From positions 221,556 through 285,555 of the forward strand of contig CAZXYN010000001.1 in assembly GCA_964644965.1 (NCBI GenBank): a stretch of DNA of 64,000 nt. The letters are read 5' to 3'. Shown piece by piece: positions 43,209 to 46,836 of the stretch (positions are counted from its first letter, which is position 1; each line of letters starts with the position of its first letter). This DNA comes from an uncultured Candidatus Saccharibacteria bacterium (GTDB lineage Bacteria; Patescibacteriota; Saccharimonadia; Saccharimonadales; JACDBH01). Under the pieces are notes generated by a model. That model ran no database searches. It saw only the letters and a list, made by a program, of their open reading frames with translations, and was not told the DNA's origin. A program made the translations under genes and the position numbers.

Positions 43209-43616
43209 ATGGTAGATGTAGTAACAGAATTAGAACCAACCAAAGCAAAAAAGATTCTCTGTATAGAGGATGAATACTTTATTAGCGAATTATACGAACG
43301 TGCTCTCAAAAAAGCTGGTTATGACGTCACAACTGCATTAAACGGCACAGATGGTTTACAGATAGCTCAGACAAACAGCTACGACCTGGTGCTGCTAGAT
43401 TTGATGGTACCGGGCATGACTGGTATGGAAATCCTACGTATCCTGCGCGATCAGCAAAAATCACCAGGTTTTCATGGCAAGATTATTATCACCACCAATC
43501 TAGATCAAGACGACGAAACTAGAGCCGAGGTAGAAAGCCAAGCTGACGGCTATCTAATCAAAGCCGCGATTACACCAAAAGAGCTGGTAAATTTCGTAAA
43601 TAAACTTGCTGCCTAG
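43209..43616 (+). CDS. single-domain (CheY-like) response regulator
   Basis: KILCIEDEYF...DLVLLDLMVPGMTG...LIKAAITPKELV; no output domain. Confidence 0.85.
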   Translation: MVDVVTELEPTKAKKILCIEDEYFISELYERALKKAGYDVTTALNGTDGLQIAQTNSYDLVLLDLMVPGMTGMEILRILRDQQKSPGFHGKIIITTNLDQDDETRAEVESQADGYLIKAAITPKELVNFVNKLAA

Positions 43617-43657
43617 ACAATCCACCTCTGTTATGGTAGTATTTAGCAGTTCATCAC

Positions 43658-43690
43658 GGCCTCATACTTTGTATGAGCCACAAATTTTTC
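43658..43690 (+). terminator. intrinsic terminator candidate
   Basis: GGCCTCATAC-ttt-GTATGAGCC (1-nt bulge) followed by ACAAATTTTT. Confidence 0.5.
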
Positions 43691-43738
43691 GGCTATGGGC
43701 AAAAATGTAAACACTTTTGCTGGTACCACTCAAAATTT

Positions 43739-43813
43739 GGCCTCATCGTCTAACGGTTAGGACATCAGGTTCTCATCCTGGCAATCGGGGTTCGATTCCC
43801 CGTGAGGTCACCA
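43739..43813 (+). tRNA. tRNA-Glu (anticodon CUC)
   Basis: GGCCTCA acceptor, D-arm GTCTAACGGTTAGGAC, anticodon loop TTCTCAT, T-arm CGGGGTTCGATTCCCCG, TGAGGTC-A-CCA encoded. Confidence 0.9.
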
Positions 43814-43821
43814 AATTAAGC

Positions 43822-43845
43822 ACGTCAGCCTAGCTGGCGTTTTTA
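43822..43845 (+). terminator. intrinsic terminator after tRNA-Glu
   Basis: ACGTCAGC-cta-GCTGGCGT (one G-U pair) followed by TTTT. Confidence 0.6.
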
Positions 43846-43881
43846 ATTTGGTAAATTCTTGAGAGTCGAAGTACGATTGCC

Positions 43882-43998
43882 ACAATCGGGTGAGGTCTGC
43901 CAGTGGCAGGCCGCAAGGAAACCTTCCGATGGCAACTGGTTGCCAATAGAGAAGTTTCGGGCTCGCCGAAGGTGAGTCGATTCCCCGTGAGGTTACCA
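43882..43998 (+). repeat. two degenerate partial copies of the tRNA-Glu 3' end
   Basis: 43977-43998 TCGATTCCCCGTGAGGTTACCA matches tRNA 43792-43813 at 21/22; 43882-43897 CAATCGGGTGAGGTC equals the tRNA 3' part with the T-loop deleted. Confidence 0.85.
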
Positions 43999-44028
43999 CG
44001 CAAAAGCTCTTCTACTGGAGGGCTTCTT

Positions 44029-44052
44029 GCTTTTTTGCTTTTTTGCTTTTTT
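44029..44052. repeat. tandem repeat (GCTTTTTT)x3
   Basis: gcttttttgcttttttgctttttt, preceded by a degenerate gcttctt. Confidence 0.9.
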
Positions 44053-44118
44053 ATGTAATAATTAATATACTTTTAGGAAATTCTTAGGGGTGTACCTTCA
44101 ACCATCGGGAGAGAACTA

Positions 44119-44535
44119 ATGAATAACTTTACGCTTAGCAGGACGATCGACGAACAAGGATCTATTTTTGCAGGAATTGCTGCTTTTGGGTTTGCGGCAA
44201 TTGGGTTTATTGCGGCCTCTTATCCATCAGCACTACTGGTCATGCATGGGGCGGATGAGAAGATGGGCTTTATGATAGCAGTATTTCTGGTGCTGGGATG
44301 TATTTTCACCTACTCAGTGGTCCACGTAACTTTCTGTACTTTCTATAACTGGCTTGCAGCCAGTGAATCAAAAGGTGCTTTGATTCTTGGGGTACCCTTG
44401 GGCGCAATCGTCGGAGTGGGGATGGGAGTAATGACGATAGCAGTAATACTCTTCGTCGTTGCTGTATATCTCGCAGTCATCGCGTTCTGCGCGCTTCTTG
44501 CGGGTATTGTCGTCATGGGTTTCTTCTCCGACTAG
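44119..44535 (+). CDS. hypothetical polytopic membrane protein
   Basis: 138 aa, four hydrophobic segments; GGGAGAG lies upstream of the ATG. Confidence 0.55.
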   Translation: MNNFTLSRTIDEQGSIFAGIAAFGFAAIGFIAASYPSALLVMHGADEKMGFMIAVFLVLGCIFTYSVVHVTFCTFYNWLAASESKGALILGVPLGAIVGVGMGVMTIAVILFVVAVYLAVIAFCALLAGIVVMGFFSD

Positions 44536-44667
44536 GAGGCATGATTTTGAGAAAGCTACCTTTCTCTTTCATCGCCTCCGCAACTTCTATGAATGTGTTT
44601 CATACTGATGAGCCCGGAAGGACGAAAAGTTGCAGGTTTTGTAAACTATTTTTAGATAAAAGTTAAG

Positions 44668-44725
44668 GGCCGCGATGCTGACAGGAGTTTCCGGGTAGGA
44701 AACAACATCTGTCAGCATCGCGGCC
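44668..44725. terminator. bidirectional terminator / 17-bp perfect inverted repeat
   Basis: GGCCGCGATGCTGACAG (44668-44684) / CTGTCAGCATCGCGGCC (44709-44725), between convergent genes. Confidence 0.6.
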
Positions 44726-44732
44726 AGGTTCT

Positions 44733-45356
44733 TCAGGGTGTTGCTGGTTCGAGTTGATGACGTTGCCGGTATCGGCGATATTGCATTTCCAATGCACCCA
44801 CGCTGACCCCAATCACGTTGAACGCGAAATGAAGCTGTACGGCTTGAGCGAGTCCCTCGTAAAGGAACACCAATCCGTAGATGAATCCAGTCAGAAACAA
44901 TGCAACCACTGTCTTGAGTTTCACCATCATAAGTAGGTGCGCTACTGCGAATATTAGACTCCACAGAATCACGCTAACCATGTCAGTGACTACCCACTCA
45001 CGGAATATCAACTCCTCATAGGCCGCGAACGCTGGTAGCGTGAACAGCAAGACCGATGCATACAAGACACACCACAAAGGGTGCAGCATCATCGGTTCCT
45101 CGACTAGGCTTTCACGAGGTGCTTCTTTCTTGAAGAGGGTGCCCAGCCACCACTCTGACCACTCGAACCGCAGCTGTACGAAATACCTTACAGCCATGAT
45201 TGTCGCCATGACCAACAGTGCTCCCGCGAACAACTTGTAGTCGAGACTTTCTCGCCAGACAAGCAGGTTGAATTCGCGATAGTGGTAGGCCGGGTGCGTC
45301 ACAAGCGCCAACATGACGACGGCAAGAACCCACTTCCAGTTCATTCTCTGTGCCAT
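44733..45356 (-). CDS. CPBP-family (CAAX/Abi-like) intramembrane metalloprotease
   Basis: Motifs EELIFRE, FAVAH, HFAFN in a polytopic protein; start placed at the MAQRMNW ATG (45354-45356), 6 nt after GGAGGT. Confidence 0.75.
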   Translation of the reverse strand: MAQRMNWKWVLAVVMLALVTHPAYHYREFNLLVWRESLDYKLFAGALLVMATIMAVRYFVQLRFEWSEWWLGTLFKKEAPRESLVEEPMMLHPLWCVLYASVLLFTLPAFAAYEELIFREWVVTDMVSVILWSLIFAVAHLLMMVKLKTVVALFLTGFIYGLVFLYEGLAQAVQLHFAFNVIGVSVGALEMQYRRYRQRHQLEPATP

Positions 45357-45516
45357 GTCAGCACCTCCATGTGTTTGAATGAGCATTTCTTGAAGAACTA
45401 CGACAATCTTCTCAGACAATTGCAAGTTAAACAAAAGCGCTTTAACCATGGTTCATCTTACGTAAACATACCGCTTACGCTATAATGTTCTCTATAAATC
45501 ATAAGCAGAAAGCTCA

Positions 45517-46836
45517 GTGGCACCATATCTAGTAATCAGTTTGGCGGGCGTTGTTGTCGTAGTGGTCATTGCTATGCTGCTTCTGAGATCCCAAAAATCT
45601 GGTAGTCAAAACAAAGGTGGTAAAGCCAGCGCATTGGCTAGCAATCTCAGCAACGAAAAGATGAAGTCAGAAATTATCCTGAACTCCATCGGTGACGGTG
45701 TAATCCTACTAGACAGTGAGCAAAACATCCAGCTGTTCAACCCAGCAGCCGGTCGAATCACCGGCTGGGATCCAAAAGAAGCAGTTGGCATCAGCGTTAA
45801 AAGTGTACTGCTATTACACAATGACAAAGCCGAACCATATCTAGAGAACGAAACACCATTCTACCGTGCTTTCAACGAAAAAACCGCCATACAGGACCGT
45901 ACGTCTAACCTAATGACCAAAGGCAAAGCTGTTATTTCACTAGATATATCAGCTACGCCGCTACTAGATCAAGACGGCGATGTTTTTGGCGCCGCTGTGG
46001 TGTTCCGCGACGTTAGTGAGCAGCGCAAGGAAGAAGCTCAGCGAGCAGACTTCATCAGTACCGCTAGCCATGAAATGCGCACACCCGTAGCCGCAATCGA
46101 AGGCTATCTGTCATTAGCACTCAACGACAAAGTCAGCAAAATTGACGACAAAGCCCGAGGTTTCCTAGACAAAGCTCACGACAGCACCAAGCACCTTGGC
46201 AAGCTGTTCCAGGATCTACTAACCAGTGCCAAGGCTGAGGACGGCCGCTTAACCAACCATCCCGTCGTAGTCGAAATGGGTCAATTCCTAACAAGTCTAA
46301 CAGACGCGCTAAAATTCAGTGCCGAGTCGCGCGGGCTTGGTATTGAGTTTGTGCTCGGTGCTCAGGGCAGTGTGATTGACGCTAGCGATACCAGCACTAT
46401 CAAACCATTGTATTACGTACTGGTAGACGCCGATCGTCTGCGTGAAGTCATCACAAATATCTTCGACAACGCCGTCAAATACACCGAGAGCGGCAAGGTT
46501 AGCCTAGGACTAACTGGCGATGACTCGGTGGTCCAAATCCGTGTACAGGACACTGGTCCAGGTATTCCGGCCGAAGACATTCCTCACTTGTTCCAGAAAT
46601 TCTACCGTGTAGATAATTCAGCCACCCGTACCATCGGTGGCACTGGGCTAGGGCTATTCATCTGCCGCAAAATTGTCGAGCTATACCACGGCCGAATTTG
46701 GGTAGAAAGCCAAGTCGGCAGTGGTAGTACTTTCTATATCAACCTACCTAGACTCAGCAGCGCCCAGGCCGCCGAACACCAAAAACAAGAATCATCCAGA
46801 CTCCCTGAACTTTCCGCTTCAGACACCAAACTTTGA
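45517..46836 (+). CDS. sensor histidine kinase (TM, PAS, HisKA, HATPase)
   Basis: GTG start; PAS-like ILNSIGDGVILLD; H-box SHEMRTPVAAIEGY; NAVKYT; DTGPGI; GTGLGLFICRKIV. Confidence 0.85.
   Translation: MAPYLVISLAGVVVVVVIAMLLLRSQKSGSQNKGGKASALASNLSNEKMKSEIILNSIGDGVILLDSEQNIQLFNPAAGRITGWDPKEAVGISVKSVLLLHNDKAEPYLENETPFYRAFNEKTAIQDRTSNLMTKGKAVISLDISATPLLDQDGDVFGAAVVFRDVSEQRKEEAQRADFISTASHEMRTPVAAIEGYLSLALNDKVSKIDDKARGFLDKAHDSTKHLGKLFQDLLTSAKAEDGRLTNHPVVVEMGQFLTSLTDALKFSAESRGLGIEFVLGAQGSVIDASDTSTIKPLYYVLVDADRLREVITNIFDNAVKYTESGKVSLGLTGDDSVVQIRVQDTGPGIPAEDIPHLFQKFYRVDNSATRTIGGTGLGLFICRKIVELYHGRIWVESQVGSGSTFYINLPRLSSAQAAEHQKQESSRLPELSASDTKL

Follow-up and report, generated by a model that had tools for sequence, protein, structure and literature searches.

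Directly downstream of the tRNA-Glu(CUC) gene of an uncultured Candidatus Saccharibacteria bacterium, in the 64,000-nucleotide stretch of DNA that we analysed (the window), we identified a unit of about 150 bases, here called element E, which our best reading describes as patchily distributed, structured and matching no catalogued RNA family. E begins with an inverted copy of part of tRNA-Glu, continues with three hairpins (H2, H3 and H4) that covary among homologues from other metagenomes, and ends with a direct copy of the tRNA 3' end followed by a terminator-like hairpin (Table 1). We consider it rather probable, by a modest degree, that E is an undescribed small RNA with H2–H4 as its selected core and with ends derived from tRNA-Glu, the 3' end and terminator having been borrowed through duplication or recombination at the T-loop; its expression, RNA ends and function are predicted here from sequence. 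A literature search found no published description of E.

A structured unit between two terminator-like hairpins

Table 1. Features of the tRNA-Glu locus, in window coordinates
Feature	Position	Strand	Basis and remarks
Promoter-like site 5' of tRNA-Glu	43614-43642	+	consensus scan; TAGACA, 17 bases, TAGTAT, with TG preceding the second hexamer
Mini-hairpin GGCCTCATACTTTGTATGAGCC	43658-43679	+	sequence; 22 bases, 59 bases 5' of the tRNA
tRNA-Glu(CUC), intact, CCA encoded	43739-43813	+	ARAGORN; Rfam RF00005, 58.4 bits
Terminator-like hairpin T1	43814-43848	+	stem extension pairs tRNA ACCA with TGGT 43849-43852
Element E (5' arm, H1-H4, 3' arm)	43849-43998	+	homologues, covariation; ~150-base conserved structured unit
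E 5' arm, inverted (antisense) copy of the tRNA-Glu 3' half	43849-43893	+	local alignment to the reverse-complemented tRNA
P1a	43849-43853	+	within the 5' arm
P1b	43864-43869	+	within the 5' arm
Hairpin H1	43874-43888	+	within the 5' arm
Promoter-like match with extended -10-like TGC-CACAAT	43859-43886	+	consensus match only; the -10-like sequence overlaps H1
Hairpin H2, GGTCTGCC-AGT-GGCAGGCC	43894-43912	+	8 pairs, 100% paired (6 sequences), 4 changed on both sides
Hairpin H3, long, with internal bulges	43918-43958	+	18 pairs, 96% paired, 11 changed on both sides
Hairpin H4, GGCTCGCC-GAA-GGTGAGTC	43960-43978	+	G-U pairs at fixed positions
E 3' arm, direct tRNA-Glu copy (T-loop, T-stem 3' strand, acceptor 3' strand, ACCA)	43977-43998	+	21/22
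Terminator-like hairpin T2 and T-rich run	43999-44045 (stem 44004-44025)	+	
ORF138	44119-44535		138 residues
Perfect long inverted repeat, GGCCGCGATGCTGACAG ... CTGTCAGCATCGCGGCC	44664-44727		probably a bidirectional terminator
ORF238	44733-45449	-	Rce1/CPBP-like

An earlier, sequence-only reading of this DNA had reported an intact tRNA-Glu(CUC) gene followed by two decayed copies of its own 3' end. The gene was confirmed by ARAGORN and Rfam, and so was the longer copy, the 22-mer TCGATTCCCCGTGAGGTTACCA, which matches the tRNA-Glu end at 21 of 22 positions and has no further match besides the tRNA in the 64 kb (chance expectation, none). The second fragment, the 15-mer CAATCGGGTGAGGTC, is also present, but it starts at 43883 (43883–43897) and not at 43882. 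It equals two collinear tRNA blocks minus the T-loop and the T-stem 3' strand, and composites of this kind of at least 15 bases occurred in 0 of 2000 shuffles of the 163-base spacer. While the description of this piece as tRNA with the T-loop deleted is thus correct as a match, it fails as an independent copy, since the second half of the 15-mer is the 5' strand of H2. This half reads TGAGGTC in the window and TGAGAAC or TGAGAAT in five homologues, and the window GGTC is matched by GGCC on the opposite strand of H2; because the relatives differ and the change is compensated, we take the acceptor likeness to be a window-specific compensatory change. The CAATCG of the 15-mer is the 3' strand of H1, where it is paired with the antisense CGATTG, and in the homologue at locus L075 the 15-mer stretch can be aligned with the reverse-complemented anticodon stem-loop. 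A change in the 5' arm compensates for the one C-to-T difference of the 22-mer (UGGUA/UACCA in the window versus UGGUC/GGCCA in L080). The pieces are therefore of tRNA origin, as had been proposed, but they are not two nested decayed att remnants: they belong to one unit of about 150 bases that is 67–80% identical in other metagenomes and carries 21 compensated pairs. The list of fragments was also incomplete, having missed the mini-hairpin at 43658–43679, the inverted copy within 43849–43998 and the terminator-like hairpins that follow the tRNA and the 22-mer.

The inverted copy comprises the first 35–50 bases of E (~35 in the window), which follow the reverse-complemented 3' half of tRNA-Glu in collinear order, as in L080 with ATCGAACCTCGATTGCC versus ATCGAACCCCGATTGCC; in L075 it reaches into the reverse-complemented anticodon loop. 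The shuffle p value of this alignment was ~0.02 in the window and <0.01 in nine of 15 elements, and the alignment was always collinear, from which we infer that E is composed of an inverted tRNA half, H2–H4 and a direct copy of the tRNA end (its last 16–22 bases). Within the 3' arm TCGATT pairs with P1b and TACCA with P1a. At three further places (L135, L078 and L077:1700-1725) we observed only the start of an inverted arm after the terminator, e.g., TGGTGACC, and the inverted arms are graded in length, the shortest adding 4 bases to the terminator palindrome and the longest reaching the 35–50 bases noted above; this series may reflect extension of the terminator palindrome by template switching.

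The hairpin T1 that separates E from the tRNA has the appearance of an efficient terminator, and its ACCA-hairpin-TGG design recurs at many related loci. On the other side of the gene, the motif CCTCTGTTATGNTA was also found 5' of tRNA-Glu in relatives, and the promoter-like site there is a putative promoter of tRNA-Glu. The mini-hairpin GGCCTCATACTTTGTATGAGCC joins the 5' acceptor strand of tRNA-Glu to a near complement of that strand; it is shared by L012, at the exact point where tRNA-Glu (of type B) starts in the relative L009, which suggests that rearrangement has occurred 5' of the tRNA gene too. We also noted that the tRNA-Glu(CUC) genes of relatives come in two sequence types, of 75 and 76–77 bases, that swap for each other.

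Covariation and strand

Our main alignment was a sequence-only MAFFT alignment of five sequences, to which the L077 homologue was later added as a sixth. On the five sequences RNAalifold predicted 45 pairs, 17 of them with compensatory changes, and a model consisting of P1a, P1b and H1–H4 had 96% of its cells paired and 19 pairs changed on both sides, as compared with 0–3 double-changed pairs when the partners were slid; none of 500 shuffles reached the observed value. With L077 included, 96.4% of cells were paired and 21 pairs were double-changed (1–3 with slid partners, again 0/500 shuffles), counts that, the alignment being shallow at six sequences, are not to be read as formal probabilities. 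Compensatory changes thus exceed the controls, as is generally expected of a structured non-coding RNA. Almost all of the covariation lies in H2, H3 and H4, with H1, P1a and P1b contributing little. The inner six pairs of H4 were 100% paired, four of them with double changes, a G-U pair was invariant in all six sequences, and the outer G-U was invariant in the five-sequence RNAalifold run.

The spacer between tRNA and 22-mer folds better than its shuffles (z = -4.1 with the terminators included). The closing helix P1 was rejected as a family-wide feature, since across the wider family its duplex energies were not consistently better than those of shuffles. RNAalifold also proposed a long-range, minihelix-like pairing of GCCACAAUCGGG with CCCCGUGAGGU, which competes with H1 and whose columns are invariant or show one-sided changes. 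As to the strand, 17 G-U cells make the fold 96.4% paired on the plus strand versus 91.3% on the minus strand, and the terminators were found to be specific to the plus strand, which is that of the tRNA.

Homologs and distribution

A metagenome scan with the 22-mer returned 120 loci, most of which were tRNA-Glu(CUC or UUC) genes; several matches were not tRNAs, and these were preceded by a homolog of window positions 43849–43976. Homologs collinear over the whole of E, 148–155 bases in length and with pairwise identities of 67–80%, were identified in L080, L075 (identical to L088), L094, L127 (truncated at its 5' end) and L077, the last being found by the covariance model alone (140 bits). A related unit is present at approximately 16 of 112 tRNA-Glu loci (~15% of those sampled), directly after the post-tRNA terminator and beside both CUC and UUC genes. 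The CUC loci have the same neighborhood as the window, with two-component-system and DUF3048 genes, and three of four UUC loci examined (L045, L072 and L080) have a common downstream gene, which in L080 encodes a pyruvate kinase. The relatives of this pyruvate kinase are named Saccharimonadales or Saccharibacteria, and all relatives of the histidine kinase encoded upstream of tRNA-Glu in the window are from metagenome-assembled Candidatus Saccharibacteria genomes. A more distant subgroup (L072, L056, L045, L038 and L055) has a covarying hairpin of its own, with compensation in six of 10 pairs, with a conserved CGCAG...CGAG motif on its flanks.

E is absent from the orthologous locus in L001, L009, L155, L157 and L158, whose response regulators are 76–85% identical to that of the window, and is also missing from L160, which has a pyruvate kinase with 94% identity to the one in L080; across strains from one sample series the entire region is identical. 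Among the relatives that lack E, L155, L158 and L160 are none of them near-isogenic, and the DNA between the repeats is itself conserved with covariation. The 64-kb window contains no further copies of E. We observed in addition that Logan contigs L006, L008, L012–L014 and L023–L030 end inside tRNA-Glu at GGTTAGGACA(C/T)CA, likely because these tRNA k-mers are common to co-occurring Saccharibacteria, so that the downstream sequence of the closest relatives is not recoverable there.

A putative small RNA

In the small-RNA reading that we favor, E would most likely yield a small non-coding RNA transcribed co-directionally with the tRNA. Its synthesis would start either at the tRNA promoter, with transcription continuing through T1, or at the extended -10-like sequence TGC-CACAAT in the 5' arm. 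Together, the tRNA 3' end and the terminator, both borrowed, could provide a module for 3'-end formation and stability, giving an RNA that ends in CCA; H2–H4, with their fixed G-U pairs, would be the selected part and probably bind protein, and the sense and antisense tRNA arms could zip into a closing helix. As for its origin, duplication or site-specific recombination at the T-loop may have displaced the native tRNA 3' end and terminator, which would explain the direct repeat. Several observations count against the small-RNA reading: the internal promoter is a consensus match only, T1 looks efficient, the distribution of E is patchy where a core RNA gene would be expected to persist, and the E copies that bracket accessory genes in L043, L080 and L077 fit a role in recombination at the DNA level.

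More tentatively, and as a possibility that we would not call probable, E may represent a new class of tRNA-Glu-linked small RNA of Saccharibacteria, encoded by a portable cassette in which sense and antisense tRNA 3' halves surround three selected hairpins, put beside either tRNA-Glu gene and shuffled there by T-loop-specific recombination, the RNA mimicking or pairing with the tRNA-Glu 3' end. Such an RNA could be a decoy for a factor or nuclease that recognizes the tRNA-Glu 3' end, or could carry a masked anti-tRNA arm.

Among known RNAs, E resembles tmRNA, the bacterial YrlA Y RNAs and mascRNA in being partly tRNA sequence, with a T-arm/acceptor-type end and CCA, and like these tRNA-like RNAs it would plausibly use tRNA 3'-end maturation. 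Unlike them, it forms no cloverleaf or acceptor helix and matches no covariance model, and its tRNA-like 3' strand is unpaired or paired with the antisense copy. The position of E directly 3' of a tRNA on the same strand is that of the E. coli glyW-cysT-leuZ 3' external transcribed spacer small RNA, and makes co-transcription and processing conceivable; in contrast to that spacer, E is preceded by a strong terminator-like hairpin, and it is much larger and multi-branched. Saccharibacteria are ultra-small epibionts for which few regulatory RNAs are known. If the small-RNA reading is correct, E would be a new RNA family for this group, combining sense and antisense tRNA halves and found beside both tRNA-Glu genes, as well as a clear case of a product of tRNA-gene recombination retained by selection on its fold. 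E provides a concrete covariance model and a locus that is testable in cultivable strains.

Possible recombination at the T-loop

Tyrosine integrases that target tRNA genes and cross over in the T-loop leave a repeat-plus-terminator geometry such as that seen here. Homologs of the hairpin T2 are the terminator that immediately follows tRNA-Glu in L104 and the T2 of L094, which in turn matches the post-tRNA terminator of L080; on the basis of these homologies the native tRNA 3' end and terminator appear to have been displaced or duplicated, as in T-loop-type integration. To this extent the integration geometry proposed in the sequence-only reading stands, with a direct repeat of 22 bases that starts within a stem-loop, at the TCGATT of the T-loop, runs to CCA and is followed by a tRNA-type terminator. 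We found that L137 and the second E copy of L043 have a common right flank, and that the divergence between them sets in immediately left of TCGATT. In L043 two nearly identical E copies flank a 1.5-kb insert with two genes, for a peptidase S51 protein and a small protein, and in L077 the tRNA end, the terminator and the first 24 bases of E are repeated around a 1.9-kb insert with genes for a ParE toxin and a dehydrogenase. In L080 one ORF separates E from a second, weaker copy (E'), and at L045:2722-3004, after tRNA-Glu(UUC), there are two tandem E-like units with a terminator between them, the second of which has lost its GTGAGG 3' end. The start of the repeat in the T-loop, the homologous terminators and the E copies that bracket accessory cassettes together make a recombinational origin plausible. 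The element also sits at a probable hot spot for accessory-gene cassettes.

These same observations are the strength of the main rival of the small-RNA reading, which we regard as a real if rather unlikely possibility: that E is mainly a DNA module, either a non-autonomous, integrase-less (cis-mobilizable) integrative element or the attachment site and boundary of small gene cassettes, acted on at the T-loop by a recombinase supplied in trans, with hairpins that serve recombination or ride along. It would account for a direct repeat that starts exactly at the T-loop, for the displaced terminator, for the doubled, repeated and tandem arrangements in L043, L077, L080 and L045, for the L043/L137 divergence point, and for the presence of E after both tRNA-Glu isoacceptors and its patchiness among close relatives. 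The searches for the corresponding enzyme speak against it. The repeats enclose no open reading frame, however small, and have no integrase or recombinase gene between or beside them; Pfam found no integrase domain in the neighboring genes. Tyrosine integrases of ~300 residues do occur directly 5' of a partial tRNA-Glu 3' copy (~32–36 bases) in L071, L103 and L136, contigs with a GC content of 0.34–0.46 that are classical integrative elements using the same tRNA end in another lineage, but a tblastn search with the L136 integrase identified no homolog in the window or near any E copy. Moreover, E occurs as one copy in 64 kb with no target-site duplication, was not found in IMG/VR or in phage and plasmid collections, and has compensatory changes and fixed G-U pairs that point to selection on an RNA fold and not on protein-binding DNA arms.

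The comparison with att duplications made by tyrosine integrases, including cis-mobilizable remnants, has the same two sides. The likenesses are the tRNA 3' repeat from T-loop to CCA, the displacement of the terminator to the far side, the accessory-gene hot spot, and the genuine copies of this tRNA end that accompany an integrase in other bacteria (L071, L103 and L136). The differences are that the repeat-bounded segment at the E locus is ~165 bases, lacks an integrase and is conserved with compensatory changes, and that E includes an inverted tRNA half, a component that att sites lack.

Neighboring genes

The interval from the first response regulator to the second histidine kinase (window 43616–45517) is highly plastic in L001, L009, L015, L155, L157 and L158, all of which have tRNA-Glu without E and differing accessory genes on either side; tRNA-Glu lies before, after or between these genes (EamA, cohesin-domain, DUF218 and LPG synthase). 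In the window the two genes that follow E are ORF138, which encodes a hydrophobic, membrane-like protein and has a good ribosome-binding site, and ORF238. ORF138 was rejected as a family with informative context, as it occurs only as itself: a search of 5.8 billion clustered proteins identified no homologs beyond identical copies. ORF238 has a 38%-identical Rce1/CPBP-like homolog in L009/L010, on the same strand and 3' of tRNA-Glu with other neighbors. The long inverted repeat listed in Table 1 is situated between these two convergent genes.

These genes bear on the earlier proposal that the repeats are neutral, decaying att scars at tRNA-Glu and that the adjacent two-gene module (44.1–45.4 kb) is what is left of an island. 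We consider this improbable. The repeated tRNA 3' end is of the classic extent, relatives differ in the genes that they have from the response regulator to the second histidine kinase, and ORF138 is an orphan, all of which would suit a former island; but the homolog of ORF238 in a relative, and the location of both genes outside the repeat-bounded segment, leave the module poorly suited as its remnant. As for the repeats themselves, six contigs have the segment between them in conserved, collinear form, with 21 compensated pairs, and the 15-mer belongs to H1 and H2. The sequence-only reading had itself named the occurrence of the fragments in relatives as part of a conserved functional RNA, for example one with covariation, as the outcome that would speak against scars, and the conservation with covariation that we observed in relatives corresponds to this in part. 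It had also proposed looking for the 22-mer as an attP on circular or phage contigs; the 22-mer is absent from the viral contigs of IMG/VR. Repeated tRNA ends that lack an integrase should accordingly not be annotated automatically as island scars.

Very improbable, in our judgment, is that E is a cis-acting leader, or a terminator or insulator, governing how much transcription runs on from the tRNA into the gene that follows (in the window, ORF138). Its location between a terminator and the next gene is what such a role would predict, and its arms permit alternative pairings, in that TGGT can pair with either ACCA; against this, the downstream genes are wholly different between loci, some having promoter-like sites of their own, and in the window, L094 and L045 a terminator of its own follows E.

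Known RNA and mobile-element classes

Hardly credible is the remaining alternative, that E belongs, in degenerate or atypical form, to a known class (tRNA pseudogene, tmRNA, YrlA-like mimic, class C group II intron remnant or IS110 bridge RNA), for although its 3' end derives from tRNA and includes CCA, its 5' arm has a T-loop-like GAAUCGAA and it is situated right after an intrinsic terminator, it has no 5' strand complementary to the acceptor, no tag frame and no adjacent gene for a reverse transcriptase or DEDD recombinase, and it was recognized by neither ARAGORN nor Rfam. Specifically, Rfam 15 gave no match over E in the window and at 14 other loci, either at the gathering threshold or at E-values up to 5–10, and ARAGORN identified no tRNA in 43814–44100 with thresholds down to ps60 or with introns up to 150 bases, and no extra tRNAs at related loci. 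A tRNA gene or pseudogene (RF00005) was rejected as the only cloverleaf called is the tRNA-Glu gene itself; the best candidate in 43849–43976 for a 7-mer complementary to the acceptor 3' strand UGAGGUU was AAUUCUU, with 5/7 paired, three of them as G-U, and none was fully complementary. For tmRNA, ARAGORN (-m, ps60) and Rfam (E-values up to 10) gave no match, and 150 bases are too short for a tag frame. A class C group II intron remnant would fit the position after T1, but Intron_gpII was not matched and the neighboring DNA has no reverse transcriptase gene. Also rejected, for missing partner genes, end motifs, dispersal or inverted variants, were an invertible segment, an integron attC site, an IS110 bridge RNA, a TnpB guide RNA and a retron.

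A phage attP or phage-borne copy was rejected because IMG/VR contains neither the 22-mer nor either of two E-specific patterns, the 17-mer matches there being to unrelated tRNAs or a chance coding match, and a BlastN search of E against phage and plasmid collections also gave no match. E resembles Correia elements and other MITEs in its size of ~150 bases, in having ends that are mutually inverted and in folding as RNA; it differs from them in being present as one copy in 64 kb, always beside tRNA-Glu, and in having tRNA-derived ends. A MITE was rejected since, inverted arms notwithstanding, the flanks show no target-site duplication and the window holds a single copy. Directly after the E copy of L077 (L077:3793-3882) ARAGORN called a 90-base tRNA-Ser(GGA) with an odd anticodon position, a call that may be false or may mark an unusual tRNA.
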